A stretch of DNA of 64,000 nt from contig CANKTH010000002.1 in the NCBI GenBank assembly GCA_947486185.1, positions 47,946-111,945 on the forward strand. The letters are read 5' to 3'. The notes below the pieces were generated by a model. That model was not told the DNA's origin and did not search any database. It saw only the letters and a program-made list of their open reading frames with translations. This DNA is from Deltaproteobacteria bacterium. Its GTDB lineage: Bacteria > Myxococcota_A > UBA796 > SXON01. The translations under genes and the position numbers were made by a program. Below, piece after piece: positions 1 through 20,732 of this stretch (position 1 is its first letter; each line of letters starts with the position of its first letter).

Positions 1-1146
1 ACGGTCAAACGCACGCTTTTCGTAGCCGGCGTCGGCCAGGGCGTCGGCGGCGGCCTCCAGTGTCATCTGCTGGATTGGATCCACATAGGGCACCGAGGAT
101 GGCGGGATGCGAAACCTGCGGGGGTTGAAGCTGAAGTTACGGATGAACGCGCCGATCCGGGTGTAGGTCCGGTCGGGAGCCGACTTGTCCGCGTCGTAGA
201 ACAGGCGCGAATCCCAACGGGACTTGGGCACCTCGCCGATGGCGGACCAGCCGGCGTTGAGGCGCTGCCACAAGAGCTCCGGCCCGTCGACATCTTCCGG
301 AAGCCGACAGCCGAGGCCGACCACCGCGATCAGCTCCCCCGTGGTGACCCCCGCGTCCACCGTCGACTCTTGCGCCGCCGAGCGCAGGCCAGGCCGCGTG
401 TCGGGCCCAGCGAGGCTGACAGTCGCTCGCGCAGGTGCGGGCATCCAAGGGGATAACGCCGTCTCCAGCCGCGGTTCGCGGGCGGCGTGCAGGAGCCCCG
501 CGCCGCCCGGCCAGGCCACGAGGAAGGGATCATCCGCCTCAAACCAACCCGCGCCTACGGTCTCGACCGACTCACCGGCAGCGAGCCGCCGCCAGACGGG
601 CGACGCAGGCGACGCGACCACGTTCTGGCCGCCCACCCGGAGCAGATCGGCGGCGCGGAGCCGCTCCCGACGACGCACGAGGCCCGGAGGCGGAGCGAAG
701 CTGTGAAACAGCACATCCGACAGTAGGATCCCCGCGATCTGGGGTCGGGGCTCATCGGGGCCGTGGGGCCAGTCTGCCAGAACCCGAACGCCCTGCGGCG
801 CCGCCGCGATCAGCTCCCGCAGCTCCCGCTCGCCCGACCACCCGCCACTGCCGAGCCCCCGCAGGACGACGCCCTCGAATCCTTCGAGCTCCGCCGGGGA
901 CTCCGGCCAACTCGCCAGCTCGCGCCAGCAGGACCGCCCCGCCACCGGGGGCCCGCGCCGCACGATCAACGGCCCCGAACCTGGAGCATCCCCGCTGTCG
1001 ACCGCTCGCACCCAAACGCCGTCGGGAAGCTCGGCCCCCCGGGCGCAAGTGCAGTCGATGATGACCTGGGCGCCAGCAGCGCGGGCGCGCTCGCTCAGGT
1101 TTCGTCGCTCGTAAGGGAGAACGACGAAGATCTCGGGTTGCCCCAT
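1..1146 (-). CDS. Type I PKS / PUFA-synthase-like megasynthase, N-terminal part only (runs off the left edge). About 270 aa of unassigned N-terminal region, then the start of a ketosynthase domain.
   Basis: Absent from the ORF track because it has no stop in the window. Hand translation of the minus strand from ATG at 1146 (GAGGAA about 8 nt upstream) is open to base 1, 382 codons. Residues ~273-382 read IAVVGLGCRLPEDVDGPELLWQRLNAGWSAIGEVPKSRWDSRLFYDADKSAPDRTYTRIGAFIRNFSFNPRRFRIPPSSVPYVDPIQQMTLEAAADALADAGY. This is the canonical N-terminal KS pattern and is closest in style to PfaA/HglE-type synthases. Confidence 0.75.
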   Translation of the reverse strand, partial: MGQPEIFVVLPYERRNLSERARAAGAQVIIDCTCARGAELPDGVWVRAVDSGDAPGSGPLIVRRGPPVAGRSCWRELASWPESPAELEGFEGVVLRGLGSGGWSGERELRELIAAAPQGVRVLADWPHGPDEPRPQIAGILLSDVLFHSFAPPPGLVRRRERLRAADLLRVGGQNVVASPASPVWRRLAAGESVETVGAGWFEADDPFLVAWPGGAGLLHAAREPRLETALSPWMPAPARATVSLAGPDTRPGLRSAAQESTVDAGVTTGELIAVVGLGCRLPEDVDGPELLWQRLNAGWSAIGEVPKSRWDSRLFYDADKSAPDRTYTRIGAFIRNFSFNPRRFRIPPSSVPYVDPIQQMTLEAAADALADAGYEKRAFDR

Positions 1147-1269
1147 CCGCTGTTCCTCTGAATCGGGCCTCTCTAACGTGCTCGGGTGCCCGTCGCCCGC
1201 GACGGCTCCCCCTACGTCACCGTCGTGTCACGGCAGACGCCGATTCCGCCAAGATCGCCGCGGTCCAGC

Positions 1270-1587
1270 TCAGCCGGCGCCCTTGTCCCCGCCCGGGTTG
1301 GTGTCGTCCCAACCGTCCTGTTGCCCATCGAGAAACCAGGGCTTCTCCTCACCACGATCCGCGCGCGGCGCGCCGCCGGCCGCCCCGGTGGACGTCGCCC
1401 CTTTGGGCGGCGAAGCCGGCGCCGGTGAGGCCACGGCGCCGCCCGCGCGGTCATCCCGCGACGGGGCCGGATAGAAGGGGCTGTCGTGTTCAAGGTAAGA
1501 AGGAGGTTTTCCGGGGTGTTTCGCCTCGCGCGAGACCGCCTTGACCCCCGACTTCACGCGCGCCGCGATCCGTGACAGCAGACCCAT
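1270..1587 (-). CDS. Small hypothetical protein (105 aa) directly downstream of the radical SAM pair. Basic amphipathic N-terminus, Pro/Ala/Gly-rich centre, acidic Trp-containing C-terminus.
   Basis: ATG at 1587 lies 10 nt after the TAG of the upstream rSAM gene, with a GGGGG run about 6-10 nt upstream. G/C-ending codons dominate. No family motif recognised. Confidence 0.5.
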   Translation of the reverse strand: MGLLSRIAARVKSGVKAVSREAKHPGKPPSYLEHDSPFYPAPSRDDRAGGAVASPAPASPPKGATSTGAAGGAPRADRGEEKPWFLDGQQDGWDDTNPGGDKGAG

Positions 1588-1596
1588 CCGAGCCCC

Positions 1597-3216
1597 CTAC
1601 TGACTGATAAGCTTCCGTAAGGACCCATATTGCCTGACCTTGAACCAGGTGAGCTCACCGCGTTGAAAATACTTGAACGCGACGTGGAACATCCGCACGT
1701 AGTTGGCCGCCCACGCCAGGTAGAAGACCGGCTCGACGTGTTTCTTCCAGTACTCACGCTGCTCCAGCAGGCCCTCGATGAAGCTCTTCGGCACGAAGGC
1801 CTTGGAGGCGAGACAGAAGATCGCCAGGTAGAACTTGTCTTCGTCGCTACGCGGCCAATCCATTGACACCCGAAACTGCTTCCAGGCCTTGGTGCTGCTG
1901 CCCTCGACCTCGTCCGGCTGAATCACCCCCTCGGCGAGCAGCTTCTGGGTCAGCGCAGTGCCGGGAAAGTAGTTGAGCGAGTAGAAATAGATGGAGTACG
2001 GCCGAGGCAGATCGAGGAGGAAGCGCGCGGTCTCCATCTTCATCTCTTCGGTGGCGTGGGGGTTGTCAATGATGACATCGTAGACGATGTCCAGCTTGAG
2101 ATCCTTGTTGAACTCCGAGAACTTCAGGATCGCGGTGTTGCCCGGGGAGCGATTGTGGAGCTCCTTGCTCTCCTTGGCGCTGCCGCTCTCGATCCCGGTC
2201 TGCACACGGATGAGCCCCACGTTCACCAGCTTCCTCAACATCTCTTCCCGCAACATCGGCGGGATCAGCAGACACTCGAACGGGATCCCGACCTCCGGCC
2301 CGTACCGGGCCAGGAACTCGTCCATCCACTCCTGCCCGAAGGCGAACGACGTGTCGTCGTCGATCTTCACCCGCGCGACCCGCGGGAAGTGCTTCTTCAT
2401 ATAGGCCAGCTCGCCGATGATGTGCGACACCGACCGGGCCCGGTAGAAGGCCTTGCCCTTCTCGTCGTAGACGTCCCGGAGGATCGAGACATAACAATAG
2501 GAGCAGTTGTAAGGACAACCCCGAGAGAAGTAGATCCGGTACTCGGCAGTGCGCTTCCACGGCTCCTCGACCGTCACTTTCCCGCCTTCAATGTAGTACT
2601 TGTTGTGGTCCTCCACGTCGGGATAGGGCAGCCAGTCCAGGTCCTGGATCAGCGGCCGAGGGCTGTTCTTGAACACCTCCCCGTTCTTGTTGGCCCATAC
2701 ATTGGGGATGTGAGTCGTATCCTCGCCCTTGGACAGCGCATCACAAAGGTCGATCGCAGCTTGTTCTCCCTCCCCGACACAGAGGTAGTCCACCAGCGGG
2801 ATACACGCGTCGGGCGAAGAGGTGGGGTGAATGCCGCCCCAAACCACCGGGGTCTGGGGGAAGCGCGCCCGGATCCGCCGCGTCACTTCACTGGCGATCG
2901 GAAGCAGGCTCGACATGAAGCCAAAGCCTATCAGATCCGCCTTCTTCTCCGCGATGATGTTGAGGGCGATGTCGATCTCGGCGTCGGAGGGCATCTCCAG
3001 CTCATTGTGCCGCCAGTCGCGCAAGAAGATGATGTAGGTGCGAAAGCCCGCCCGCTGCAACGCGGCGGAGATGTACCGGATCCCGGCATTCTCCACGCTG
3101 TACACCGTCATCAGCACCACGGTGAAGGGCCTCGCGGGCGCCGCCCCCGCCGCCGGCTGACTGACCGTGCGCGACGGCATCGGGGAAGTGGGCTGGGTCT
3201 CAACGGCTCCGTGCAT
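1597..3216 (-). CDS. B12-binding domain-containing (class B) radical SAM protein
   Basis: 539-aa ORF. N-terminal Rossmann-like cobalamin-binding region (VVLMTVYS...DLIGFGFMSS...VVWGGIHPT). CxxxCxxC cluster in FSRGCPYNCSYCYV. Long C-terminal helical extension. Confidence 0.9.
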   Translation of the reverse strand: MHGAVETQPTSPMPSRTVSQPAAGAAPARPFTVVLMTVYSVENAGIRYISAALQRAGFRTYIIFLRDWRHNELEMPSDAEIDIALNIIAEKKADLIGFGFMSSLLPIASEVTRRIRARFPQTPVVWGGIHPTSSPDACIPLVDYLCVGEGEQAAIDLCDALSKGEDTTHIPNVWANKNGEVFKNSPRPLIQDLDWLPYPDVEDHNKYYIEGGKVTVEEPWKRTAEYRIYFSRGCPYNCSYCYVSILRDVYDEKGKAFYRARSVSHIIGELAYMKKHFPRVARVKIDDDTSFAFGQEWMDEFLARYGPEVGIPFECLLIPPMLREEMLRKLVNVGLIRVQTGIESGSAKESKELHNRSPGNTAILKFSEFNKDLKLDIVYDVIIDNPHATEEMKMETARFLLDLPRPYSIYFYSLNYFPGTALTQKLLAEGVIQPDEVEGSSTKAWKQFRVSMDWPRSDEDKFYLAIFCLASKAFVPKSFIEGLLEQREYWKKHVEPVFYLAWAANYVRMFHVAFKYFQRGELTWFKVRQYGSLRKLISQ

Positions 3217-3225
3217 ATCGAACCC

Positions 3226-4668
3226 CTAAGAAACTTGGGTGGGCGGCGCGAGGAGTCGCGGCAGCTTGGGTGTCAACATTCGCACCCCGGCGGTCGCTTT
3301 CCTAAGGAAATCCTGGGGATTCCGAATCTGTGTCAGGTTGCGCGCCACAAACTTGGGCCGCCAATAGAAGCGGCGATAGGCGGTGTTGAGCATCTCGCGC
3401 AGCTCCGCGCGCGTGAAGTGCTCGTCCCAGACCTGCGCCTTGAAGTCGGCGCGGGGCTCCCGCATGAACTTCAGCCACGGATCCAGGTCGAGCACGCCGT
3501 CGCGCAGGCCCTCATCGTAGAGCGTCGTGCCCGGAAATGGGGTGAGCACGTTGAACATGACAAAATCAGGGTCGAGGTTGATGGAGTAGTCGATGGTGTC
3601 CATCACGTCGTCACGGCTACGTTCGGTCGGCGTGCCGATCATGAAGTAAGCCACCGTATTGATGCCCACCTCTCGGCAAAGCCGGAAGGCGCTCTCGATC
3701 TCCCGGACAGTGACGTCCTTCTTGAGCCTGAGCAGGCCCTCCTCCGTCCCTTGCTCCACGCCGAACTGGATACGCTGGCAACCCGCCGCCTTCATCTTCT
3801 GCAGGAGCTCGCGGGTGGCGCCCTTGACCCGGAAGCGCACGGTCCAGGAAAACTTGAGCCCTCGTTTGATGATTTCGTCACACAGCTCGATCACCCGGGC
3901 GTTGGTGATGTTGAAGGTGTCATCGACGAAGTAGATCTCAGAGATACCCAGCTTGATACATGCTTCGATCTCGTCACAAGCTCGCGAGGGCGACATCACC
4001 CGATAGCGGTGGCGAGGCGTGTTGCAGAAGGTACAGCGGTAGGGGCAGCCGCGGGAGCTGATCATCGTGGTGAAGATGCCGCCGCGACCCATGACGTCGT
4101 AGTACCGGCGATAGTCCACAAGCGTCCGGTCCGTCAGCGGGTAGTCGTCCAGGCTGTTGGAGAAGTAGACATCCTGCTCGGGCACCGGGTCGTCCGGGTG
4201 GGCCATGACCCCGGGGAGGCCACGGGGCGACTCCCCACGCTCCCACAGATCGCAGAGGTCGAGCATCGGTTTCTGGCCTTCGCCCTTGACCACCGCGTCC
4301 ACCCCCGGCAACCCCACACATTCACGAGGAAAGTCCGACACATGTGGGCCGCCGACGACCACGTAGCGGGCGCCGGCGCGCCGGGCGGTCTTCACCGTCT
4401 CGTGGACGTCCACCAGCTGCACGGTGAACGCAGTCACTCCGACCACATCCGGCTTCCAATCACGGATCTGCCGCTCGAGATCCTCGTAGGGCGTGTTGTC
4501 GAGCTGCGCATCAATGATGCACACCTCGTGGCGGCTCTTCTCCTTGAGGAAGGTCGCGATCGCCATGAGGGCGAGCGGCGGGTAGGAGAGGTTCTCTGCC
4601 GAAACCGCCTCGGGAACCTCGCTCTCCACCGTATGTTTTGCAGGGGGACGGATGAGCATCACGCGCAT
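3226..4668 (-). CDS. B12-binding domain-containing (class B) radical SAM protein
   Basis: Start set at the internal ATG 4668 (MRVMLIRPP...). B12-binding-like N-terminus (PLALMAIATFLK...DVVGVTAFT...VVVGGPHVS). CxxxCxxC in SSRGCPYRCTFCNTP. A 9-nt gap separates it from the downstream rSAM gene. Confidence 0.9.
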   Translation of the reverse strand: MRVMLIRPPAKHTVESEVPEAVSAENLSYPPLALMAIATFLKEKSRHEVCIIDAQLDNTPYEDLERQIRDWKPDVVGVTAFTVQLVDVHETVKTARRAGARYVVVGGPHVSDFPRECVGLPGVDAVVKGEGQKPMLDLCDLWERGESPRGLPGVMAHPDDPVPEQDVYFSNSLDDYPLTDRTLVDYRRYYDVMGRGGIFTTMISSRGCPYRCTFCNTPRHRYRVMSPSRACDEIEACIKLGISEIYFVDDTFNITNARVIELCDEIIKRGLKFSWTVRFRVKGATRELLQKMKAAGCQRIQFGVEQGTEEGLLRLKKDVTVREIESAFRLCREVGINTVAYFMIGTPTERSRDDVMDTIDYSINLDPDFVMFNVLTPFPGTTLYDEGLRDGVLDLDPWLKFMREPRADFKAQVWDEHFTRAELREMLNTAYRRFYWRPKFVARNLTQIRNPQDFLRKATAGVRMLTPKLPRLLAPPTQVS

Positions 4669-4726
4669 GGTGGCAAGACTCCAAACGCTATTGTCCTGGA
4701 CGCGCCCGGAAGGGTCAACCACGGGT

Positions 4727-4743
4727 GGCCCCGAAGCGGGGCC
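4727..4743 (-). terminator. GC-rich hairpin between the giant lipoprotein gene and the rSAM genes. Possible terminator or attenuator; no U-tract.
   Basis: ggccccg-aag-cggggcc, a perfect 7-bp inverted repeat. It lies 23 nt after the TGA at 4766-4768 and 59 nt before the ATG at 4668. Confidence 0.35.
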
Positions 4744-4765
4744 GGTGTAGTCCAGCCGACCGGTC

Positions 4766-7700
4766 TCACGGCACACAGCTCAATGCGCCGCCGCCCGTAC
4801 ACACGAAGCTCGAGACCCCGTCATAGTCGTCGAGCGTGCCGCCCTGAGCGAAGTCATGGGGCCCGTTGTCGTTCCCGATCGCGCCCAGGTCGCAGCTCGT
4901 GACCGTGAAGCTGCTCGTGGCACCGACGCCGAACTCGGCGGCGCCGCCGAAACCAACCAGCGCATCGTTACGCTCCACCCCGCCGCCGCCCGTACAGCTC
5001 ATGGTCACGACACCGCTCTCCAGGTAGAATGCACCTCCGTAGCTGGCTGCGTTCAATTCGACAGTCGTGTCCACCAGGGCCACCTTCCCCGAGCGCGCCG
5101 CTCCGCTGAGGCCCCCGATCGCGATCGCCCCCCCGTAGCTCGTGCCCGTGGCGCTCAAATCGTTGTCGCTGAGCTCACAGCCCGTGAGCGTGACGTTCGC
5201 GACGCTTGGGTTGGTGAGCGCGGTCACGTAGATCGCGCCGCCCATGTAGGTGCTGGTGCCAACTTCCGTGCCAACCCCTGCCTCCAGCGTCAGGTTCTCG
5301 AGACTGATCGTGTGCGCTGAGGTCTGCGCGATGACCCGCAGGATCGAACCCTGGTTGTTGAGCCCCGACAGCACAGGGTTCGCCCCGGAGCTGAGCCCCA
5401 CGAGCGCGACGTCCACCTCGGCCGTGGCGTCCGGCACGGTCAGGTTGACATAGTAGGTCCCCGCGCAGACGTTGATGGTCACCTCTTCGCCGACCAACGT
5501 GTCGTCGGTTGGCGCCGCCGAATTCGTGCTCCAGCTCATCGTGACGGGCTCGCCGTCGCTGTCGATGCCGGTCACCACGCCCGTCTCGGACTCCGAGGCA
5601 GGATCACAGTCGTTGTCGACGCCGTCGCAATAGATCGGCGCCCCCGGGTAGACCCAGCTGTCGGAGTCGTCGCAGTCGGTGTTGTCGGCCACCGTCGCGG
5701 TCGGCGCATTACACGCCGAAGTGGGCACGTCGGTTTCGTCGCCGAAGCTGTCGCCGTCGGCGTCCGCGTACCAGTCGGTCTCGCCCGTGGCGCCCGGGTC
5801 GGCGTCGTCGGCGAACCCGTCGCAGTCCTCGTCGGTGTCCAACGCGTCGCACACCTCGGTGGCGCCGACGTAGATGGCGGCGTTGTTGTCGTTGCAGTCC
5901 GTGCTGTTGCCGACGTAGCCGGAGGGTTGGTTACAGAGCACCGACGTGGTGGCCGTGGTGCCCTGGGTGTCCCCGTCCTGGTCGCGGTACCAGGTGGTCT
6001 CGCCGGTCGCGCTGGCGTCGGCGTCGTCGGCGAGCCCGTCACAGTCCTCGTCGGTATCCGACGCGTCACACACCTCGGTGGCCCCCGGGCTGATCGCGGC
6101 ATTATTGTTGTTACAATCCGTATTGTTCGCGACATGGGCCGACGGCGCGGTACAGGCCAGCGTCGCGGTGCCGGCGCCGTAGGTGTCCGAGTCGGTGTCC
6201 GCGTACCAGCTCAAACGATCTACGGGCGTCCTCGTGCTGCTGCTACAGTCGTTGTCGGTGCCCTCATTGGCGCAGGTCTCGATTGCGCTCGGATAAACGG
6301 CTGAATCGCTGTCGTTACAGTCGGTTGACGTGGCGTAATAGCGCGTGCCGGGATCGGTACACGCAAGCTGCGTGGTGGCCCCCGCGTAGGTGTCGAGGTC
6401 AGAGTCGTAGTACCAGGTCAGCTCGTCGGTGGCGTCCGTCGTGCTGCCGTCGCAGTCGTTGTCGGTGCCATAGGTGGCACAGAGCTCGGGCGCTCCAGGA
6501 TAGGCGGCGTTGTTGGTGTCACTACAATCAGTCGAGTTGGCAACATAGCCCGACGGCAGGAGGCAGGCGACCCGTGTGTCGGACGCATTTCCGTAGGTGT
6601 CGCTGTCGCTGTCCCGGTAGTAGGTCACGGCGCCGACCGCACCGTCCTCGTTGATGCTGGAGTCACAGTCGTCGTCGTAGGTCGTGTCACACCGCTCGAG
6701 GTCGCCTGGAGAGATCCCAGCGTTTGAATCGTTACAATCGGTGTTGTTGGCGACCCGACCGGCGACTGTCGTGGCGCAGTACCGTATGCCGCCTGTGGCG
6801 GCGCCGTAGCTGTCGCCGTCAATGTCCACGTAGAACAACGTCCCGTCGGCCGTGCCCACGGCGTTCGCGGTGCCGTCACAGTCGTCGTCGTAGGCGGTGG
6901 TACAGGTCTCGGTCTCGCCGGGGTTGGCGTTGACCTGTGCGTCGTCGCAGTCGGTGCTGTCCGTGACATCGCCCGAGACAGCGGTGCAGGAGTAGACGAG
7001 CGCCGTGTCGTCCTCGTCGCCGTAACCGTCGCCGTCGTTGTCGTCGTAGTAGGCCGTCGCATCGGCCGCGCCGTTTTCGTTGATTGAACCGTCGCAGTCA
7101 TCGTCATAAGCGGTCGAGCAGACCTCGTCCTCGTCGGGGTTCACCGCGGCGCGGGTGTCGTCACAGTCGTCGTTGTTGCTGATCTCTCCCGGAATGAGCG
7201 AGCAGCCCTCGGTCGCAGTGAGGTCATCTTCGTCTCCGAAACCGTCACCATCGGCGTCCCGATAGTAGAAGGCGGTGCCGACGGCGCCGGCCTCGTTGAT
7301 CGCGCCGTCACAGTCGTCGTCGTAGGCCGTTGCGCAGCGCTCGGTCGCCCCGGGATACGCGAGGTTGTCCTCGTCGTTACAGTCGCGCGTATCAGTGGTG
7401 TAGCCGCTCGGCACGGTACAGGCGCTGTAGGTGTTGCCCAGGTCGCCGTAGCCGTCGCCGTCAGTGTCGGCATAGAAGGTCGTGGTGCCGAAGGCGTCGT
7501 CTTCGTTGACCGAGCCATCGCAGTCGTCGTCGGCGGCGGTGCTGCAACGCTCGGTCGCTGCGGGGTTGACCGAGGTGACGCTGTCGTCACAGTCCTCGCC
7601 CCGAGACACAAAGTTGCTCGGGGCAATACACGCCACGGTGGTGTCACCGCTGTTGCCATAGCTGTCGTTGTCCCCGTCGAAGTACCAGGTGCTCGCGTCC

Positions 7701-10168
7701 ACCGCGCTGTTCTCGTCGCTCGCCCCGTCGCAGTCATCGTCCCGGAAGTTACAGAACTCCGTCGCACCCGGAAATGCCGAGGCGAACAGATCATTACAGT
7801 CGCCAAAGTCGGCGACATAGCCGACCGGCTGCACGCAGGCGGGCTGGGTCTCGGTGGGGTCTCCATAGCCGTCGCCGTCATTGTCGGCGTACCAGGTGGA
7901 GGCGTCGATCGATGAGGCCTCGTTGGAGTCGCCGTCGCAGTCGTCGTCCGCGCCGGTTGTACAGAGCTCAGGCGCCCCGTCATAGACTTCGTCGTCGCCG
8001 TCGTTACAGTCGAGGTTGTCTGCGCTATAACCCGCGGGACGGTCACACCAGGGCACTACGGCGCCCGCTCCCTGACCGTCACCGTCGGCATCGGCGTAGC
8101 TGTCCAGCTTGCCGTCGGCCTCCGGCGCAGCGTCATCGGCGAGCCCGTCGCAGTCTTCGTCGGTGTTGGCCGCGTCACAGAGCTCGATCGCGTCCGGATG
8201 GATCGCGCTATCGCCGTCGTCACAGTCCGTGCCATCCGCGACCCCGCGAGCGGGAGCATCACACCGATCGGTCTCGGTGGCCGGATCTCCAAAGCTGTCG
8301 CCATCCGCGTCGGTGTACCAGGTGCTCTCGGTGCTGATATCCACCGAGATATCGGCGTCATCGGCGTCATCGTCACAGTCTTCGTCCACGTTGGCGCCGT
8401 CGCAGATCTCCTGCGCGCCAAAGTAGATCGCGGCATCGGCGTCGTCGCAGTCGGTCGAAGTGGAGACCCGTCCTGCTTCGCCGTCGCACAACACCACGCC
8501 GGCATCGGTCTCGTCACCCTGGCCGTCACCGTCATCATCGAGGTAGTAGGTGCTTCCTCCGGTCGCGCCGGTGTCGGCGTCGTCACTCAGGCCGTCGCAG
8601 TCTTCGTCGACGTCCGCAAGATCGCATAGCTCAGGAGCGCCCGGGTAAGTGCCCGCAGCCCCATCATCACAGTCGTCGGCGGCGCTCCCAGCCGCGGTAA
8701 AGCTGGTCACGACCTGCGCTTCACACCAGCACTCGGAGAGCGCGGGATCGCCGTGTCCGTCCCCATCATCGTCCAGGTACCAGTCGACACACCCTACCGC
8801 CTCCTGCTGGTCAAGAGACCCATCACAGTTGTCGTCATCTCCGGTGCTGCAGTCCTCGAGGACGCCCTCACGGATCGCCGCGTCGCGATCATTACAGTCG
8901 GAGCCGCCGTCGCTGTCCCGATCCTGGCCGTCGCCGTCCTGATCGTAGTCGGAGGCGCCATCGCAGTCCTGATCGGTCCCGTCATACCAACTGTCCACGC
9001 TGCCCGGGTAAATCCCCGCCGGTCCGATCGCGCCGGGATCGTCGAAGCTGTCGCCCACTTGATCGTAACAGTCGGTGCCGTAGACGCCGTCACCGTCCGG
9101 TTGGTAGAGCGAGGTGTATCCGTCGCTATCGGCGTCCCAGTCATTGGCGCGATCACAGTTCTGATCCACGCCGTCATACCAGTCCTCGGTCGCCTCCGGG
9201 AAGATGCTGGCGTCTTCATCCGCGCAGTCGGCGCCGCCCCAGGCCTCGGAGTCGGAGTCGTCAAAATCCTGGTCAAAGTCGGAGTGTCCGTCGCAGTTGG
9301 CGTCTACGCCGTCGTACCAGACCTCCGTTACGCTCGGGTCAGGGTACCGTGCCGGATCGGTGTCATCACAATCGCCGAGGCAAGAGCCGGCGCCGTCAGG
9401 CAGCTCCTCGCACTCGTGACCGTCCTGATCCTGATCCCAGTCATCGTCGTTGGCGCAGTCCTGGTCGGAGCCGTCGTACCAGGTCTCGATCGAACCGGGA
9501 TGGGTGTCCAGCTCGCTGAGGCCGGCGGGGTTGTCGTAGCTATCCTCGGGGTGATCAAAACAATCATCCCCAAAGCTGCCATCTCGCCGTTGTTGATACG
9601 CGGAATCGTAACCATCGCCGTCCGCGTCGAACTCCGCCTGAGCCTGGCAGTCCGCGTCACAATCCGCCACCTGCTGGGCGCAGTCTTCGTCCACGCCGTC
9701 GTAGAAGCTATCGGTCCCCGACGGGTTCACCTCGGCCGGCAAGGGCTGGTCAAGGGCGTTGAGCGCTACAAATTCCGGCGGAATGACCTCGGGATCATCC
9801 GAATCCCAGCAGTCCCCGGCAGGCAGCACCGGGAGATCGAAGGGCAGCGTGGTCACGTCCGCATAGGCGTCGGGCACAAACCCGTCGAGATCGGCGTCAA
9901 AATCGTCGTCCCCGGCGCAGTCGGCGTCGATGCCGTCGTACCACGCGTCGGGGGCGCCCGGGAAGATCTCCGCGCCCGTGAGCGTCGTGCCGGTGGCGCT
10001 GGTCGGCCCCACCGGGTTGTCCCAACAGTCTTTGAGCGCGTCTACGCCATCCCCGTCCGCGTCCACCGCCTTCCACTCGGGGGTACAAGCGCCGAGCAGC
10101 AGCGCCGCGCCCAGGAGCCCCTGCAGGCGCCATAGCGCCGGGATCTGGACGAAAGTAGTTGCTGACAC
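4766..10168 (-). CDS. Giant secreted lipoprotein. Three parts: N-terminal WYDG-D-DC acidic repeats, about 16 MopE-type 'putative metal-binding motif' Cys/Asp repeats, and a C-terminal beta-helix/Pmp-like domain.
   Basis: The ORF is open to a TTG at 10240. The likelier start is GTG at 10168, which gives VSATTFVQIPALWRLQGLLGAALLLGAC with an LGAC lipobox. By eye there are 6 copies of (W/F)YDGxDxDC...DxDxDG and 16 copies of DC(D/N)Dx6-7PGAxExCx5-7D(E/D)DCDG, alternating with YxDxDGDGYGD. The last 271 aa carry GGAIYV / YGGAIAI / YGGAFYL repeats. Confidence 0.85.
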   Translation of the reverse strand: MSATTFVQIPALWRLQGLLGAALLLGACTPEWKAVDADGDGVDALKDCWDNPVGPTSATGTTLTGAEIFPGAPDAWYDGIDADCAGDDDFDADLDGFVPDAYADVTTLPFDLPVLPAGDCWDSDDPEVIPPEFVALNALDQPLPAEVNPSGTDSFYDGVDEDCAQQVADCDADCQAQAEFDADGDGYDSAYQQRRDGSFGDDCFDHPEDSYDNPAGLSELDTHPGSIETWYDGSDQDCANDDDWDQDQDGHECEELPDGAGSCLGDCDDTDPARYPDPSVTEVWYDGVDANCDGHSDFDQDFDDSDSEAWGGADCADEDASIFPEATEDWYDGVDQNCDRANDWDADSDGYTSLYQPDGDGVYGTDCYDQVGDSFDDPGAIGPAGIYPGSVDSWYDGTDQDCDGASDYDQDGDGQDRDSDGGSDCNDRDAAIREGVLEDCSTGDDDNCDGSLDQQEAVGCVDWYLDDDGDGHGDPALSECWCEAQVVTSFTAAGSAADDCDDGAAGTYPGAPELCDLADVDEDCDGLSDDADTGATGGSTYYLDDDGDGQGDETDAGVVLCDGEAGRVSTSTDCDDADAAIYFGAQEICDGANVDEDCDDDADDADISVDISTESTWYTDADGDSFGDPATETDRCDAPARGVADGTDCDDGDSAIHPDAIELCDAANTDEDCDGLADDAAPEADGKLDSYADADGDGQGAGAVVPWCDRPAGYSADNLDCNDGDDEVYDGAPELCTTGADDDCDGDSNEASSIDASTWYADNDGDGYGDPTETQPACVQPVGYVADFGDCNDLFASAFPGATEFCNFRDDDCDGASDENSAVDASTWYFDGDNDSYGNSGDTTVACIAPSNFVSRGEDCDDSVTSVNPAATERCSTAADDDCDGSVNEDDAFGTTTFYADTDGDGYGDLGNTYSACTVPSGYTTDTRDCNDEDNLAYPGATERCATAYDDDCDGAINEAGAVGTAFYYRDADGDGFGDEDDLTATEGCSLIPGEISNNDDCDDTRAAVNPDEDEVCSTAYDDDCDGSINENGAADATAYYDDNDGDGYGDEDDTALVYSCTAVSGDVTDSTDCDDAQVNANPGETETCTTAYDDDCDGTANAVGTADGTLFYVDIDGDSYGAATGGIRYCATTVAGRVANNTDCNDSNAGISPGDLERCDTTYDDDCDSSINEDGAVGAVTYYRDSDSDTYGNASDTRVACLLPSGYVANSTDCSDTNNAAYPGAPELCATYGTDNDCDGSTTDATDELTWYYDSDLDTYAGATTQLACTDPGTRYYATSTDCNDSDSAVYPSAIETCANEGTDNDCSSSTRTPVDRLSWYADTDSDTYGAGTATLACTAPSAHVANNTDCNNNNAAISPGATEVCDASDTDEDCDGLADDADASATGETTWYRDQDGDTQGTTATTSVLCNQPSGYVGNSTDCNDNNAAIYVGATEVCDALDTDEDCDGFADDADPGATGETDWYADADGDSFGDETDVPTSACNAPTATVADNTDCDDSDSWVYPGAPIYCDGVDNDCDPASESETGVVTGIDSDGEPVTMSWSTNSAAPTDDTLVGEEVTINVCAGTYYVNLTVPDATAEVDVALVGLSSGANPVLSGLNNQGSILRVIAQTSAHTISLENLTLEAGVGTEVGTSTYMGGAIYVTALTNPSVANVTLTGCELSDNDLSATGTSYGGAIAIGGLSGAARSGKVALVDTTVELNAASYGGAFYLESGVVTMSCTGGGGVERNDALVGFGGAAEFGVGATSSFTVTSCDLGAIGNDNGPHDFAQGGTLDDYDGVSSFVCTGGGALSCVP
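5582..8800 (-). repeat. Tandem in-frame coding repeats of roughly 200-220 nt (MopE-type Cys/Asp modules) inside the giant lipoprotein gene
   Basis: The peptide pattern DCxD...PGAxExC...DDDCDG...YxDxDGDGYG recurs about 16 times. Boundaries are approximate. Confidence 0.7.
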
Positions 10169-10375
10169 GCGGCCTCCATCGCACCCCGCCCGCGGCAGGG
10201 TGGCCGCCGTAGTGTACGGCTGACCGGCCCCCCCCGGCAACCGCCACCTACGAACGCGGCGTTACAGGTCGTGACCGTCCGTCACCCGCCGGGCATTGTA
10301 CGCGTGATCGCGGCGCGTTATCCCCGCGGCCCGCCGGGTGGGTCGAGGTTGACCGGCCCCGGCTCGGACACAAGG

Positions 10376-11272
10376 ATGATCGAAGTCAACGGACTCACAA
10401 AAGTTTATGGCGAGAACATGGCCCTCAACGGGGTCAGCTTCTCCGTGGCCAAGGGCGAGGTCATCGGCTTCCTCGGCCCCAACGGCGCCGGCAAGTCGAC
10501 CACCATGCGCATCATCGCCGGCTCGCTCGGCGCGAGCGCGGGATCGGCCAAGGTCGGCGGCTTCGATGTCGCCGAACACCCCAAGAAGGTGCAGGCGATC
10601 CTCGGATATGCTCCGGAGACCCCGCCGGTCTACGGCAACATGCGGGTGCGCGACTACATCGAGTTTGCGGCGACGCTCAAAGGCGTCGCGCAGGTCTCGG
10701 ACGCCGCGCTGCGTGCGATGAAAATGGTGGGTCTCGAGGATGTGCAGAGCCGAATCATCGAAAACCTGTCCAAGGGCTACCGGCAACGAGTGGGCCTCGC
10801 ACAGGCGCTGGTGCACGACCCGCAGGTGCTGATCCTCGATGAGCCCACCTCCGGCCTTGATCCGGCGCAACGGGTTGAGATTCGGCACCTCATCCAGACC
10901 CTCGCAGAGGGCGACCGCACCGTCGTGCTGTCCACGCACGTGCTCGGCGAGATCGAGGCCTTGTGCAACCGGGTCATGATCATCAACGGCGGCGTGCTGG
11001 TGACGACGGACGCGCAGACCCAGATCGCGGCCCCGGGGCGCGTTGTCCACGTGGAGGTGGCCCGGCCAGAAGACGGTTTTGAGGCCACGCTCAGATCGCT
11101 CGACGGCTTCCGGGATCTGGGCCGCAAAGGGGACGCCTACGTCGTCCGCGGCGAGCGAGACCTGCGGGAGGACGTCGCACGCGCGGCGCTGTCCTACGGC
11201 CTCTTGGAGCTGTCCGGCCGCGAACGTCTCGAAGACATCTATCTACGCCTCACCGCTCGGAGCAGCTCATGA
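10376..11272 (+). CDS. ABC transporter ATP-binding protein (ABC-2 / GldA-type)
   Basis: Start at ATG 10376 (MIEVNGLTKVYG). Walker A GPNGAGKST, signature LSKGYRQR, Walker B LILDEPTSGLD. ATGA overlap with the next gene. Confidence 0.9.
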   Translation: MIEVNGLTKVYGENMALNGVSFSVAKGEVIGFLGPNGAGKSTTMRIIAGSLGASAGSAKVGGFDVAEHPKKVQAILGYAPETPPVYGNMRVRDYIEFAATLKGVAQVSDAALRAMKMVGLEDVQSRIIENLSKGYRQRVGLAQALVHDPQVLILDEPTSGLDPAQRVEIRHLIQTLAEGDRTVVLSTHVLGEIEALCNRVMIINGGVLVTTDAQTQIAAPGRVVHVEVARPEDGFEATLRSLDGFRDLGRKGDAYVVRGERDLREDVARAALSYGLLELSGRERLEDIYLRLTARSSS

Positions 11273-12039
11273 GCGCCGTGTTCGCTATCGCCCGGCGGGA
11301 GACCGCCGCCTATTTCGCCTCCCCGATCGGCTGGATCGTACTCCTCGTGTTTCAGCTCATGACCGGGTGGATGTTCCTCTCCGGCCTGATCTGGTACGCC
11401 GACGCCAGCGCGCAGATGATGATGAACCCCTACGGGGGCGACTCGATGGACGCCAATTCGATGGTGCTCCAGCCGCTTTTCGGGAACATGGCGGTGATCG
11501 TGCTCCTCTTCTCGCCGGCCGTGACGATGCGGCTCCTGGCGGAAGACACCCGGATGAAGAGCTTTGAGCTCCTGCTCACCTCGCCGATCTCCTCCTTCCA
11601 GATCGCGCTCGGCAAGCTGCTCGGCGCGCTGGGCTTCGGGGTGGCGCTCGTGCTCTCTACCGCGCACTTCGTGCTCATCCTGCGGTGGCTCGGCGACATC
11701 GACACCGGCATCTTGATGACCAACTACCTCAACTTCTCGCTGATGCTGGGCATGCTGTTCGCGATCGGGCTGTTCTGCTCCGCGCTCACCGAGAACCAGG
11801 TGGTGGCGCTCGCCCTCGCTTTTTCGGCCAACCTCCTGCTCTTCATCTTCGGCTGGGCCGCCGCGGGTATGGAGGCCGGAACCGCCAAAGAGGTGATCGA
11901 ATACATCTCGATGGTGAGCCACGTGGAGCAGATGGGCAAGGGCCTGATCCACATCAAAGATTTAGCCTATTACCTAACTTTTATTGGCTTCGCCCTGTTT
12001 GCGACTACGCAACGGGTTGAGGCGATGCGGTGGCGTTGA
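11269..12039 (+). CDS. ABC-2 type transporter permease (GldF-like)
   Basis: 256 aa with about 6 hydrophobic spans. Translationally coupled to the ATPase gene (ATGA at 11269-11272). Confidence 0.8.
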   Translation: MSAVFAIARRETAAYFASPIGWIVLLVFQLMTGWMFLSGLIWYADASAQMMMNPYGGDSMDANSMVLQPLFGNMAVIVLLFSPAVTMRLLAEDTRMKSFELLLTSPISSFQIALGKLLGALGFGVALVLSTAHFVLILRWLGDIDTGILMTNYLNFSLMLGMLFAIGLFCSALTENQVVALALAFSANLLLFIFGWAAAGMEAGTAKEVIEYISMVSHVEQMGKGLIHIKDLAYYLTFIGFALFATTQRVEAMRWR

Positions 12040-13664
12040 TGCGTGCGTATGCCTGGATCATCGGATTCATCGGGGGCCTGGGCCTCCTGACCTACGCGGC
12101 GGGCGCTGCGCTGCTCTCCGAAGTGCCCGACGCCCTCAACATCGTCGGTGGCGTGAGCGCGGCCCTCGTCGCCGCCTGGCTCTTCTCCGACTGGAGCTCG
12201 GTGCGCGCGGTGAGCGACAGCCAGGCCTTCGGCCGACGTTGGATCGCCGCCGTGACCGTGCTCCTCGGTGCCGGCATCATGGTGACGCTGAACATCGTCG
12301 CCCATCGCTACAACAAGCGTTGGGACATGACGGCGAACAAGCAGTACACGCTGTCGCAGCAGAGCATCGACATCGCCACGGCGCTGGACCGCCGCGTCGA
12401 GGTGAAGGGCTTCTTCGTCCCCGGGACGCCTGACGCCAGCAACGCCGAGGATCTGCTCAAGCGCTACCAGGAGCACAGCTCACTCATCGAGGTGAGCTGG
12501 ATCGACCCCTTCTCTCAGCCAACGGTGGCGCAGGAGAACAAGGTCAGCTCTGAGAGCGGCGCGCTGATCCTCGTGGCCGCCGACAAGGAGCAGCGGATCG
12601 AGTCGAAGTTCGACGAAGAGAGCGTCACCAACGCCCTGATCCGCCTGACGTCCGACACGACCCACACCGTCTGTATGGTGCAGGGCCACGGCGAGCCCGA
12701 GATGGATGACAGCTCGGGCCAGTTCGGCTTCGGTTTTGTCAACAAGAAGCTTGAGGACCAGGGCTACGCCGTCACGGCCCTCTCGCTGGTGGGCACCCAG
12801 CCCACTCCAGAGACCTGCAAGGTGGTGATCTTCCCCGCGCCACAGAGCGCGTTGGTGCCCGCCGAGCTCGACCGACTCGCCAGCTACGTCGCGGGCGGCG
12901 GGTCGCTGATCGCGCTCATGGATCCCCGGACTCCAGCGAGCGTCGCCGCCGACATGGCCCGTTACGGGGTGGCGGTGGGGAACGACGTCGTCGTGGAGAT
13001 GGACGCCTACCGGGTGTTCAACAACTCGCCGTTCATGCCGCTCCTGAACGAGGACGCCTACGAGGCCCACCCGCTCACCGCCAAGCTCTCGGGCGCGTCG
13101 GTGCTCCTCGAGGCGCGCTCGGCCGGCGCGTCGGCGACGCCCATCTCCGGCATCACCACCACCGTGTTGGCGCGCACCTCGGACTCGAGCTGGGCGGAGA
13201 CGGACTTCAACGCTTCGCCAGACTCTTTTGCCCCCGACGCCGGCAAGGACATCGTCGGCAAGGTCCCGGTGATCGTCGTCGCCGAGATCAGCGACCCCGC
13301 GGCGGTGGTCACCGCGACCCCCCCTGCGCCGCTGCCCGACGGCCTGCCCGCGCCCGCCCTACCGGCCCCATCCGTCACCGTGCCTCCCAAAGCCGGGGGC
13401 AAGGTCGTGGTCTACGGGGACGTCGACTTCGCGTCGAACCTGCTCGTGGGCAACGGTATCAACCAGGACCTCCTGCTCAACACCGTGGCGTGGATGGCGG
13501 GCGAGGAGGAGCAGATCAGCGTCCGGGCCAACGAGGCCGGCAAGGGTCGGCTCACGGTGGATCTGCTGGCCTTGTTCGTCGCCGGGGTGAGCAGCATCGC
13601 GCTCGTGCCGGGACTCACCGGGATGTTGGCGCTCGGGTCGTGGTTGCGGCGACGCCGAGGCTAA
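12030..13664 (+). CDS. GldG-family ABC transporter auxiliary protein
   Basis: N- and C-terminal TM anchors. Contains the motif HRYNKRWDMTANKQYTLSQQS typical of GldG / ABC_transp_aux proteins. The start is either GTG 12030 or ATG 12039. Confidence 0.75.
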   Translation: MALMRAYAWIIGFIGGLGLLTYAAGAALLSEVPDALNIVGGVSAALVAAWLFSDWSSVRAVSDSQAFGRRWIAAVTVLLGAGIMVTLNIVAHRYNKRWDMTANKQYTLSQQSIDIATALDRRVEVKGFFVPGTPDASNAEDLLKRYQEHSSLIEVSWIDPFSQPTVAQENKVSSESGALILVAADKEQRIESKFDEESVTNALIRLTSDTTHTVCMVQGHGEPEMDDSSGQFGFGFVNKKLEDQGYAVTALSLVGTQPTPETCKVVIFPAPQSALVPAELDRLASYVAGGGSLIALMDPRTPASVAADMARYGVAVGNDVVVEMDAYRVFNNSPFMPLLNEDAYEAHPLTAKLSGASVLLEARSAGASATPISGITTTVLARTSDSSWAETDFNASPDSFAPDAGKDIVGKVPVIVVAEISDPAAVVTATPPAPLPDGLPAPALPAPSVTVPPKAGGKVVVYGDVDFASNLLVGNGINQDLLLNTVAWMAGEEEQISVRANEAGKGRLTVDLLALFVAGVSSIALVPGLTGMLALGSWLRRRRG

Positions 13665-13768
13665 GGACTCGGTAAGGCTCGTTACGGAATCGGGCCCTGC
13701 GACGGGGTCGGCCGACACAACTCGCGAGGACGGCCGGTTGAAGGTCGGCCTCTTCCGGATCTCCGCGC

Positions 13769-14290
13769 ATGGACACGAAGGCGCCACAGCGGGTAGGGAT
13801 CGGCGCGGGAGTGAACATGCTGGACACCGAGGGTCTGATTGAGGTCGCGGTCGCGATCGAGCTGGAGTGCGCCGCGCTCTACGAGGTGTTCGCTCGGCGC
13901 TTTTCGGACAACGCCGAGTTTGTGTACTTCTGGAAGCTGTACGCCGAGGCTGAGCGGTACCACGCCGCGAGCATCCGTATCCACCAGGCGACGTTCTCCG
14001 GCGAGGAGCCCCCGGTCGCCCCCGTCGATCTCGCCTCAGCCCGTCAGCTCCTCGCTGAGCTGCGCGCTGAGCGTAGTCACGCGGAGAGAGATCCGCTCAC
14101 CGCGGTGGATGCGCTCCAGATGGCGCGCCGGGTGGAGGAGCACAGCGCCGAGCTCCACGGCCGCACCCAGTTTTTCGCGGGCAAGCCGGAGCTCGTTGAG
14201 ATGTTTGAGCAGATGGCCGCAGAAGACCGCGCGCACCGCGACATGTTGTCGAGCGCCGAGAAACGATTTGGCGCCGCCGAGGCGCACTGA
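13769..14290 (+). CDS. Ferritin-like / rubrerythrin-like four-helix-bundle protein
   Basis: Repeated E...E/H patterns: ELECAALYE, EAERYHA, EEHSAELH, AEDRAHRD. Confidence 0.5.
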   Translation: MDTKAPQRVGIGAGVNMLDTEGLIEVAVAIELECAALYEVFARRFSDNAEFVYFWKLYAEAERYHAASIRIHQATFSGEEPPVAPVDLASARQLLAELRAERSHAERDPLTAVDALQMARRVEEHSAELHGRTQFFAGKPELVEMFEQMAAEDRAHRDMLSSAEKRFGAAEAH

Positions 14291-14338
14291 GCGCTCCGCC
14301 TGTTGACGGCGTGCCGAAAATCTGGATAATCCCGCCGC

Positions 14339-14782
14339 ATGGAAGGCGGTCCGATACTCCGCGTGGTCGAGGGACCCCAGCGCGGTCAGGAGTACCCGAT
14401 CACCGAGCAGGGCCCCTGCATCGGCCGGGACGCAGCAAACGACATCTGTGTCAACGACACAAACGTCAGTCGTCAACACGCGCGGGTCCTGCTCCACAAT
14501 GGCGCGGTCTGGGTGCAGGATAACGGCTCGCGGAATGGGGTCTTCGTCAACGGCAACCGGGTACCTGACCACAAGCAGGTCAAGACGGGCGACAAAATAA
14601 CGGTTGGGCCCTCTGTTTTCGAGGTAGCGGTCGCCGCGAGCGAGCCGACCCCGGCCCCGCCCCCAGCAGAGGCTGCACCGGAGTCCCAGTCGGTGATGCC
14701 GCTGGTCCTCGCGGGTTTTGTCGGCTTGGCGCTCGTCTTGTGCGTTGGAGGAAGCCTGCTCGCGGTGCTGTTCCGTCCCTAA
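14339..14782 (+). CDS. FHA domain protein with C-terminal membrane anchor
   Basis: CIGRDAANDICVNDTNVSRQHARVLLHNGAVWVQDNGSRNGVFVNGNRV is a canonical FHA core. Hydrophobic tail MPLVLAGFVGLALVLCVGGSLLAVLF. Confidence 0.9.
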   Translation: MEGGPILRVVEGPQRGQEYPITEQGPCIGRDAANDICVNDTNVSRQHARVLLHNGAVWVQDNGSRNGVFVNGNRVPDHKQVKTGDKITVGPSVFEVAVAASEPTPAPPPAEAAPESQSVMPLVLAGFVGLALVLCVGGSLLAVLFRP

Positions 14783-14820
14783 AGGGCGAGAGCGCGTTAG
14801 CCTCGTCTCGAGGTGTCCCG

Positions 14821-16719: not shown

Positions 16720-17987
16720 TGCTCGGCGTGTGGGGCGCGGGCCTGTTCACGGCCTGCTCCACGCCCCTCGACGCGACCGTCACGCCGAGCAGCCGCGTGC
16801 CCGCGGCCGATCTCCGGTGGACCAGCGAAGAGCCGACGCGCGCCTGGCTGGAGTATTCCTACGAAGGAAGCCCGCTGATCCGGAGTGAGAGCGAGAGCGT
16901 GGCGCGGCGGGAGCATCGTTTTGTGCTCGCCGGGGTGCCCCCGGGGGCCGATGTGGAGTGGCGCGCGGTCTGGGGCGAGGGACGCCGCGAACAGAGCACC
17001 TGGCAGAGTTGGCGCTCCCCACAGATCCCCATACCCGACGACGCCCCGGTGGCGCAGGTGAGCGACAACCCGAATCCGGGATATTATAGCTTACCCGCTG
17101 AGGATGACACGATCTGGGTCGTCGACGCCGCGGGGGCGCCCGTGTGGTGGTGGGAGCTAGGTGCCCCGCGGGCGATCGCGCGGGTGCGTCTCTTGGGCGA
17201 CCGGGTCTGGTTCAGCTACCGCGACGAGCTCACCGACGACGCCTGGCTCAGCTCCGTTGGTCTGGACGGCTCGACACCGACCGAGGAGCTCTTGGACCAC
17301 CACCACGACTTCCTGGTGTTCCCTGACCGCGAGGTGTACCTCCGACGCGTGTCGGGGACCGGCGGCGACGGCGAGCCCTGGGCGGGAGACGAGCTCGTCG
17401 AGCGCGAAAGTGGGGTAGAACGCGTCGTATGGTCTACCTTCGACGACGTGAGCTTTGAGCAGTTCGGCAGCACGTACTACAACGAGGGGCTGGACTGGAC
17501 CCACTGCAACGGGATCCTCTATGAGCCCGAAGAGGAGGTCTACTGGGTGAGCTCCCGCCATCAAGAAGCGTTTTTCGTGGTGGATCGGCAAGGGGAGCTG
17601 ATCAGGGTGGTCGGCGGCCCGCAGAGCACCTTCACCCTGGTGGGTGGCGAGAACTTCGGCAGGATCCATGTACCGGTTCTCGACCAGGACCTGTTGTACC
17701 TCTTTGACAATACGCGGGACGACAACCACCGCCCGCGCGCCGAGGTCTACCGGCTCGACTGGGACGCCCAAACGTACACCCTTCACGAAACCTACGAACG
17801 CCGTGGTTACAACCCAGAGGTGCACGGCAACGTGTCGCCCACACCGGATGGCGGGATGATGGTGGCTTTTGGCATCGCGGGTCTGGTCGACGTGCTCGAC
17901 GCGGATCGGGAGCTCGTGTTGTCGGTTGAGAAAGATGCGTTGCTCTACCCCGACTATCTCCCGACCCTGAGCGCGCCCGTGGAGTAG
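16719..17987 (+). CDS. Arylsulfotransferase (ASST)-like beta-propeller lipoprotein
   Basis: TAATG overlap with the ompA-like gene. Lipobox LFTAC. Motifs DHHHDFLVF and DWTHCNGI resemble ASST-family His motifs. Confidence 0.5.
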   Translation: MLGVWGAGLFTACSTPLDATVTPSSRVPAADLRWTSEEPTRAWLEYSYEGSPLIRSESESVARREHRFVLAGVPPGADVEWRAVWGEGRREQSTWQSWRSPQIPIPDDAPVAQVSDNPNPGYYSLPAEDDTIWVVDAAGAPVWWWELGAPRAIARVRLLGDRVWFSYRDELTDDAWLSSVGLDGSTPTEELLDHHHDFLVFPDREVYLRRVSGTGGDGEPWAGDELVERESGVERVVWSTFDDVSFEQFGSTYYNEGLDWTHCNGILYEPEEEVYWVSSRHQEAFFVVDRQGELIRVVGGPQSTFTLVGGENFGRIHVPVLDQDLLYLFDNTRDDNHRPRAEVYRLDWDAQTYTLHETYERRGYNPEVHGNVSPTPDGGMMVAFGIAGLVDVLDADRELVLSVEKDALLYPDYLPTLSAPVE

Positions 17988-18001
17988 CCGCTCTCGCACC
18001 G

Positions 18002-18016
18002 CCGCGCCCCGCGCGG
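18002..18016. terminator. Short GC hairpin between convergent genes (weak bidirectional terminator candidate)
   Basis: ccgcgc-ccc-gcgcgg, located between the TAG at 17985-17987 and the TAA at 18052-18054. No U-tract. Confidence 0.25.
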
Positions 18017-18051
18017 ACAGCCAGCCCGATCAGAGGGAGCCCGGAGAGCCC

Positions 18052-19099: not shown

Positions 19100-19108
19100 A
19101 GGAGGCTC

Positions 19109-20716: not shown

Positions 20717-20732
20717 TCCTAAGAAAGTCTTG

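Follow-up and report, generated by a model that had tools for sequence, protein, structure and literature searches.

Two class-B-type radical S-adenosylmethionine (SAM) enzymes, rSAM-A and rSAM-B, and a small protein of 105 amino acids are encoded side by side on the minus strand of the window, i.e., the whole 64,000-nucleotide stretch of contig CANKTH010000002.1 from a Deltaproteobacteria bacterium that was analysed here. Comparison with related loci shows that the conserved unit consists of these three genes, with or without a ferredoxin gene, and that it is independent of the PfaA-like megasynthase gene lying next to it in this genome. On balance, the cassette probably acts on or with its small protein, with a modified peptide as the outcome, either cofactor-like or resembling a peptide that is made on the ribosome and modified after translation (RiPP), and the megasynthase is then a neighbour acquired in this lineage rather than a partner of the cassette. 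A first-pass annotation of the window had proposed a four-gene operon in which the rSAM enzymes tailor the product of the megasynthase. This operon model fails because the megasynthase is not co-conserved with the rSAM genes, whereas the alternative offered in the same annotation, namely that the rSAM enzymes act on the product of the small open reading frame (ORF), is the reading favoured by comparative genomics.

A conserved unit of two rSAM genes and a small-protein gene

The four genes follow one another in the same direction on the minus strand, and the ORF listing and translations confirm the positions first assigned to them: rSAM-A (also called rSAM1; 3226-4668, 480 aa), the first gene of the cassette; rSAM-B (also called rSAM2; 1597-3216, 539 aa), its most conserved gene; the small ORF (1270-1587, 105 aa); and the 5′ end of the megasynthase gene (1-1146, 382 codons), which runs off the window and adjoins the conserved cassette without belonging to it. 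The two rSAM genes are separated by 9 nt and the small ORF and the megasynthase by 123 nt, as first annotated, whereas the gap between rSAM-B and the small ORF is 9 nt and not the 10 nt given at that time. The longest ORF of rSAM-A reaches a GTG at 4776; its orthologues align from the Met at 4668.

Conservation was examined by scanning one genome per species with rSAM-B, which gave 80 loci, 68 of which are Myxococcota-type loci in metagenome-assembled genomes (MAGs) mostly labelled Myxococcota or Deltaproteobacteria. The neighbours were tabulated by tblastn, the small ORF was sought with a hidden Markov model, and the denominators below count informative loci. An rSAM-A orthologue (70-84% identity) was found within 10 kb upstream of rSAM-B in 58 of 63 loci, directly adjoining it in 52 of the 63, and the small ORF was present in 52/62 loci, immediately after rSAM-B in 47/62. 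A gene for a 7Fe-type ferredoxin (Fer4 plus DUF3470) lies within 10 kb downstream in 24 of 59 loci; within the 64-kb window, no ferredoxin gene and no additional rSAM gene was found elsewhere. When the neighbours were clustered, the genes that recur on the same strand were limited to rSAM-A, rSAM-B, the small ORF and the ferredoxin. What is inserted between the two rSAM genes, or between rSAM-B and a small ORF that has been displaced, varies by lineage and is not informative. The megasynthase was within 10 kb of the cassette in a single one of 49 loci (L058), on the opposite strand, convergent, and with a gene for a GNAT-family acetyltransferase in between. The nearest relatives of the cassette (78-80% identity) carry the ferredoxin gene at the position held here by the megasynthase. 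Co-conservation across relatives had been named in the first-pass annotation as the check on its own operon model, and the four genes turned out not to be co-conserved. Literature searches on the cassette and on the six-gene cluster described below found nothing relevant, and a paper on brGDGT proved not to bear on the matter.

Two further genes were seen repeatedly near the cassette. In 19 Myxococcota-type loci (e.g., L056:4289-6631), rSAM-A is preceded at a distance of about 1.8 kb by a same-strand gene for an MMPL-family transporter, and in about 27 loci (e.g., L006:6769-8511 on the minus strand) the gene directly upstream is divergent and encodes a polytopic membrane protein of 580 aa that has no match in Pfam; both are probably lineage synteny rather than operon members. 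In addition, several cassette-bearing MAG records, including L018, L020, L022, L024, L026 and L032, carry implausible labels such as Klebsiella pneumoniae, Bifidobacterium breve and 'Enterobacterales', which are likely errors in the public records, since the G+C content and gene content match those of the Myxococcota-type loci.

Two class-B-type enzymes outside the curated families

Class-B rSAM enzymes catalyse chemically hard reactions, and to our knowledge most of them are still uncharacterised. Both rSAM proteins of the cassette have an N-terminal cobalamin (B12)-binding Rossmann domain (PF02310; 81.5 bits for rSAM-A and 58.8 bits for rSAM-B, against a cut-off of 32.1) and a radical SAM domain (PF04055; 75.2 and 47.3 bits, respectively), and both carry the CX3CX2C motif, which reads CPYRCTFC in rSAM-A and CPYNCSYC in rSAM-B. 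The cysteines C234, C238 and C241 of rSAM-B are invariant in 15 aligned sequences. Relatives of rSAM-B are 65-79% identical across MAGs of several phyla, and the mean column identity of the multi-phylum alignment is 71%.

The AlphaFold2 (AF2) model of rSAM-B (predicted local distance difference test score 77, predicted template modelling score, pTM, 0.79) was compared with the structures in the PDB, and the top 16 matches were all TsrM, CysS, MgmA, TokK, OxsB or AprD4, with 15-18% identity, template modelling (TM) scores of 0.5-0.6 and a Foldseek probability of 1.0. In its predicted fold, rSAM-B agrees with each of these enzymes, which likewise have an N-terminal Rossmann-type B12-binding domain ahead of a CX3CX2C rSAM barrel. 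However, identity and TM scores are low, no structure is clearly closest to rSAM-B, and its conserved C-terminal helical region (residues ~440-539) is without an assigned counterpart. Searches of the PDB sequences with the two rSAM proteins returned weak matches only, with AprD4 as the best. By their domains, and for rSAM-B also by the predicted fold, both enzymes can be placed in the class-B type, in agreement with the first-pass annotation, with cobalamin binding and catalysis being predicted properties. A class-B fold alone is no guarantee of cobalamin use, as illustrated by AprD4.

The curated families in NCBIfam were all missed by both enzymes. The best matches of rSAM-A, near full length, are BchE (171.5 bits against a cut-off of 481), HpnJ (142 bits), PhpK (141 bits) and HpnR (132 bits), together with the ladderane-type family TIGR04072 (138 bits against 360). 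However, the BchE, HpnJ, HpnR and PhpK scores amount to about a quarter to a third of the respective cut-offs (481-650 bits), and the neighbours examined included no chlorophyll, hopanoid or phosphonate genes. The best match of rSAM-B is HpnJ with 84.9 bits against a cut-off of 578, and nothing scored above 85. Membership in the BchE, HpnJ, HpnR, PhpK, BzaD, AprD4, ApyD, TIGR04072 ladderane-type, TIGR03975 RiPP methyltransferase and TsrM-type groups was rejected, since both rSAM proteins fall far under the NCBIfam cut-offs. On these profile scores, rSAM-A and rSAM-B belong to an uncharacterised family, the chemistry of which is not readable from homology. In one locus, a third B12-type rSAM paralogue, 36% identical to rSAM-A, is encoded just upstream of the pair (L027:6601-8010).

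The small protein

The small protein is built from an N-terminal helix (MGLLSRIKxKVKxGL in the family; MGLLSRI... here), an EEAxHPGRPPxH box (EAKHPGKPP here), a linker of variable sequence that is rich in Pro and Ala, and, at the C-terminus, an invariant motif with the consensus (K)P-W-[FY]-L-D-G-x(2-6)-G-W-[DE]-x-T-[ND]. In the window, the core of this motif reads W84-F-L-D-G-Q-Q-D-G-W-D-D-T96 and is encoded at 1300-1338 on the minus strand. The family alignments A2 and A3 show that W84, D87, G88, G92 and W93 are invariant and that L86 is nearly so, while T96 is nearly invariant in A2 only. In the AF2 model (pTM 0.20), residues 3-23 form a helix and the remainder is disordered, and no Pfam match was found even at a lenient threshold. 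One helix followed by disorder, with both the N-terminal box and the C-terminal motif conserved, gives the protein a precursor-like shape.

The start of the small ORF often overlaps or abuts the stop codon of rSAM-B, and the small ORF stays with rSAM-B where rSAM-A is absent (L088). The family comprises 95 clusters at 90% identity, and 73 representatives at 50% identity were found among 1.84 billion proteins. Nearly every match listed is a stand-alone protein (57-144 aa), and rSAM-B was the neighbour in each of the few contexts sampled; no fusion of the small ORF to an rSAM or ferredoxin was found among the 73 representatives. Because the family is kept in 52 related loci and in 73 database clusters, the small ORF is a genuine conserved gene.

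A B12-type rSAM enzyme beside a short, disordered and co-conserved peptide, which combines a conserved N-terminal part with a short motif, recalls the RiPP-tailoring B12-rSAM systems (TIGR03975; ApyD, NF050148). However, the scores are far from these families, with 74 and 76 bits for the two rSAM proteins against 282 for TIGR03975 and 119 and 51 bits against 750 for ApyD. The present system also differs in that the conserved set is without a RiPP recognition element (RRE), a protease or an exporter, that the peptide motif is invariant rather than variable, and that orthologues of the enzymes also occur elsewhere without any such peptide.

Proposed mechanism and the points against it

In the mechanism proposed for the favoured reading, each rSAM enzyme would reductively cleave SAM at the [4Fe-4S] cluster bound by its CX3CX2C motif, with a ferredoxin as the probable electron supplier, and the cobalamin domain would serve to transfer a methyl group to an unactivated carbon or to bring about some other radical rearrangement there. 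At least rSAM-B would act on the small protein, or would need it as a substrate-presenting partner; the N-terminal helix of the small protein may serve as the recognition element, and the invariant W-[FY]-L-D-G...G-W-[DE]-x-T segment may be the site of chemistry. The end product would be a RiPP-like or cofactor-like modified peptide. A more specific version, which can be put forward only tentatively, is that of a new peptide-derived product, in which the two rSAM enzymes act on the Trp/Asp/Gly segment of a dedicated disordered protein of 60-140 aa, e.g., by C-methylation or by forming a Trp-centred cross-link. In that version, a cofactor-like or signalling product would be expected because the core is invariant, not variable, and the same tentative standing covers its further part, that at least four other phyla have taken the same enzyme pair into a pathway of six genes with four rSAM enzymes.

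Several observations weigh against the small protein being the substrate or partner of the enzymes and the megasynthase being a mere neighbour. Conservation of the rSAM enzymes far exceeds that typical of RiPP tailoring enzymes, and no RRE, leader peptidase or exporter was found in the Pfam and NCBIfam scans of the enzymes or among the recurrent neighbours. In five loci, the small ORF is 3.6-4.9 kb away from rSAM-B, and in two of these five (L022 and L038) it is next to the ferredoxin gene rather than to rSAM-B. In the six-gene clusters of other phyla, orthologues of rSAM-B are 59-66% identical and those of rSAM-A 37-43% identical to the enzymes of the window, and neither this small ORF nor any other conserved one was found, which points to a small-molecule substrate shared across the phyla. 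With regard to the megasynthase, no terminator-like site was found in the 123-nt gap, the hairpin of which is not significant (z = -1.57), so that it may be co-transcribed with the cassette in this genome, and a megasynthase gene lies within 5 kb of the cassette, in convergent orientation, in both L058 and L101.

The six-gene cluster of other phyla

The rSAM pair occurs outside the Myxococcota-type loci as part of a cluster of fixed order, in which an FAD oxidoreductase (resembling PRK07208 and UDP-galactopyranose mutase) is followed by a DegT aminotransferase, a SPASM-like rSAM, an rSAM-A-type enzyme, a MoaA-like rSAM and an rSAM-B-type enzyme. Twelve of the 80 genome loci carry this cluster, and so do L003 and L007 (L003:1740-9751; also L072, L074, L075, L077-L082, L086 and L007), with hosts among Armatimonadota, UBP9, Riflebacteria, Xenobia ('Ca. 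Bruticola') and MAGs from gut or rumen. None of the proteins of the six-gene cluster reaches the cut-off of a curated family; the best matches of the DegT protein are sugar aminotransferases of the DesI, PseC and ArnB types. Because the six-gene clusters carry the pair without the small ORF, the enzyme pair would be able to act on something besides the small protein.

These clusters underlie the alternative that survives best, according to which the rSAM pair is the retained core of a small-molecule pathway (for a sugar, a cofactor or a lipid) whose full form is the six-gene cluster, and the small protein is a Myxococcota-specific accessory, e.g., a ferredoxin adaptor or a membrane tether, and not a substrate. 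The fixed gene order, the high identity of rSAM-B across phyla without large indels, the resemblance of the DegT protein to sugar aminotransferases and of the FAD protein to PRK07208 and UDP-galactopyranose mutase, although under cut-off, the absence of the conserved small ORF from the six-gene loci and the occasional company of the small ORF with the ferredoxin instead of rSAM-B are all consistent with this possibility. However, none of the four extra genes of the cluster was found in the 64-kb window or, over a distance of 10 kb, in the 68 Myxococcota-type loci, and no substrate can be named. Moreover, the persistence of the small ORF in most of the informative loci, usually adjacent to rSAM-B, and its occurrence nowhere else among the matches listed would be unusual for a dispensable accessory. 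A small-molecule pathway is accordingly regarded as a possible but doubtful explanation, while action on or with the small protein is still the favoured one.

The neighbouring PfaA-like megasynthase

The Pfam ketoacyl-synt domain of the window ORF begins at residue 273, and the ketosynthase (KS) motifs quoted in the first-pass annotation are present verbatim in the translation. The preceding N-terminal region of about 270 aa, which that annotation had left unassigned, has no match in Pfam at E ≤ 10 or among the PDB sequences at E ≤ 1, and a homologue search with this region returned only four partial polyketide synthase (PKS) proteins. An identical contig (L001:2918-9064) extends the gene to 2049 aa with the order N-domain-KS-acyltransferase (AT)-acyl carrier protein (ACP)-second KS (KS2). 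Metagenome contigs were then searched with the second-KS region, i.e., independently of rSAM-B, which had yielded L058. This search gave 11 homologue loci at 57-60% identity, in which the enzyme has the architecture N-domain-KS-AT-ACP-KS2-ACPs-ketoreductase (KR)-dehydratase (DH)-phosphopantetheinyl transferase (PPTase) and a length of about 3270-3460 aa; the enzyme of this genome would accordingly measure roughly 3300-3460 aa. In L098, a gene for a DesA-like desaturase, scoring under the cut-off, lies just upstream of the megasynthase.

The best model for the megasynthase is PfaA (TIGR02813), as first proposed, although all scores are under the cut-off of 1010.1, with 621 for the 2049-aa fragment, 803 for the L058 protein, the N-terminus of which is missing, and 923 for the full-length protein of L099. 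The core order KS-AT-tandem ACPs-KR-DH is shared with PfaA. However, the megasynthase family departs from PfaA in an additional N-terminal domain of 270 aa, a second KS that follows the first ACP, and a PPTase fused to the C-terminus. It also differs in its gene setting, in that it is followed by a GNAT gene and that no second KS- or AT-containing gene was found by tblastn in the flanks of the 11 homologue loci; NCBIfam scans of L098 and L099 likewise found no PfaB-, PfaC- or PfaD-like genes in their flanks. Most of the tandem ACPs (L058, L001, L092-L102) carry ELEADLG[IV]DTVKQAE, with Thr at the position of the expected phosphopantetheine-bearing Ser, and LGIDSVK occurs only in the first ACP of the enzyme of this genome.

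The GNAT gene directly follows the megasynthase in 7/7 homologue loci that reach the 3′ end (L092, L093, L097-L099, L101 and L102), and in L058 it lies on the minus strand at 11971-12999, next to the megasynthase gene at 12696-21521 on the same strand; the encoded acetyltransferase may be an acyl-transfer partner of the megasynthase. As for the rSAM cassette, it was upstream of the megasynthase in none of the six loci whose upstream sequence covers 3.5 kb or more, and downstream, in convergent orientation, in one of six (L101). The tandem cassette-megasynthase order of the window is unique among the approximately 60 loci examined from either side. Judged from domain order and gene neighbourhoods, the megasynthase is best described as a stand-alone PfaA-like enzyme with its own GNAT partner that is not part of the rSAM operon.

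These results bear directly on the operon model of the first-pass annotation, in which the four genes would make up one operon and the acyl chain from the megasynthase would be methylated, cyclised or cross-linked by the rSAM enzymes. The co-directional arrangement with a gap of 123 nt and no terminator-like site is in keeping with this model, as is the proximity of the two gene sets in L058 and L101, although they are convergent there. Cooperation of rSAM enzymes with iterative PKS or fatty acid synthase systems is also on record, namely for Jaw5, a HemN-like class C enzyme, with Jaw4, and for a B12-rSAM of the ladderane cluster (PMC13459092). These cases provide a precedent for the idea, and rSAM-A shows a moderate match to the ladderane-type family. 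However, its 138 bits and the 56 bits of rSAM-B miss the TIGR04072 cut-off, and the Jaw5 and ladderane precedents do not apply here because the rSAM and megasynthase genes are not co-conserved. Also against the model are the scarcity of the megasynthase near the cassette and of the cassette near independently found megasynthases, the ferredoxin gene in the place of the megasynthase in the nearest relatives, and the phyla with the six-gene cluster, which have the rSAM pair without a PKS. The tailoring of the megasynthase product by the cassette is largely refuted by the missing co-conservation and is considered improbable. Because the two gene sets lie close together in three cases (the window, L058 and L101), a link between the cassette and the megasynthase keeps a small residual probability.

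The upstream repeat protein and other features of the window

Upstream of the cassette, an 1824-aa MopE-type repeat protein, a predicted lipoprotein with 18 'putative metal-binding' PF11617 repeats, is encoded at 4766-10240 on the minus strand, and the first-pass annotation had offered it as a second candidate target of the rSAM enzymes. The invariant motif of the small ORF (WFLDGQQDGWDD) is spaced like the WYxDxDGDGYGD units of this protein, a resemblance that serves as a lead only; written as WYLDGxNDGWDD, the motif shares its spacing with WYADNDGDGYGD of the giant protein, and the small-protein profile also matches an unrelated repeat protein bearing KTWYLKGSNSDGWGDV units. That the rSAM enzymes modify this lipoprotein or other WYxDxDGDGYG-type repeat proteins, with the small protein as a single look-alike copy, is nevertheless very improbable: homologues of the giant protein occur within 10 kb of the cassette in several loci, but in just about 8 of the 68, at varying distance and strand, the repeat proteins are exported whereas the rSAM enzymes are cytoplasmic, and the resemblance is confined to a short motif, with PF11617 not matching the small protein.

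A sigma-70-like promoter match, TTGACC-17-GACAAT, lies at 4690-4718 on the minus strand, 22 nt upstream of the start codon of rSAM-A; the scan that found it gave two promoter-like sites in 5.2 kb against 0.6 expected, a count of consensus matches that is not evidence of function. No Rfam match to a cobalamin riboswitch or other RNA element was obtained in positions 1-11000. The G+C content at third codon positions (GC3) is even over the genes (0.78-0.86), with 0.83-0.86 for the rSAM genes and 0.82 for the megasynthase and the upstream gene. A foreign origin of the rSAM genes, prompted by their lower overall G+C content, was considered and rejected, as their GC3 equals that of the neighbours; since GC3 is uniform, the lower G+C content stems from codon positions 1 and 2, i.e., from amino-acid composition.

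Farther along the window, an ABC-2-type transporter set (ATPase, permease and an 'ABC_transp_aux' protein) is encoded at 10271-13664 on the plus strand, divergent from the giant repeat protein. A multihaem cytochrome-like ORF with weak MtrC and cytochrome c7 matches lies at 20322-21968 (+), an electron transfer flavoprotein (ETF)-ubiquinone oxidoreductase is encoded at 23059-24750 (+), and a TldD/PmbA metallopeptidase pair at 25779-28864 (+). The genes from 20322 onwards in this list resemble common housekeeping genes and have no apparent connection to the cassette.

Implications

The comparative evidence does not bear out a new lipid or polyketide tailoring system, and it corrects the annotation of the neighbouring gene, which would encode a PfaA-like synthase that stands alone, bears a second KS and a PPTase fused to it, and has a GNAT partner. 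What it delimits is a three- or four-gene cassette whose two class-B rSAM enzymes are covered by no curated family. The rSAM pair is very strongly conserved in uncultured Myxococcota-type MAGs, many of them from lake samples, and it is also conserved, in another gene setting, across Armatimonadota, Riflebacteria/UBP9 and gut Xenobia. The peptide reading and the small-molecule reading, if true, would alike define a strongly conserved enzyme family, with about 60-80% identity across phyla, without known chemistry, and the rSAM pair with its dedicated, invariant small-protein partner would offer a clean experimental target.

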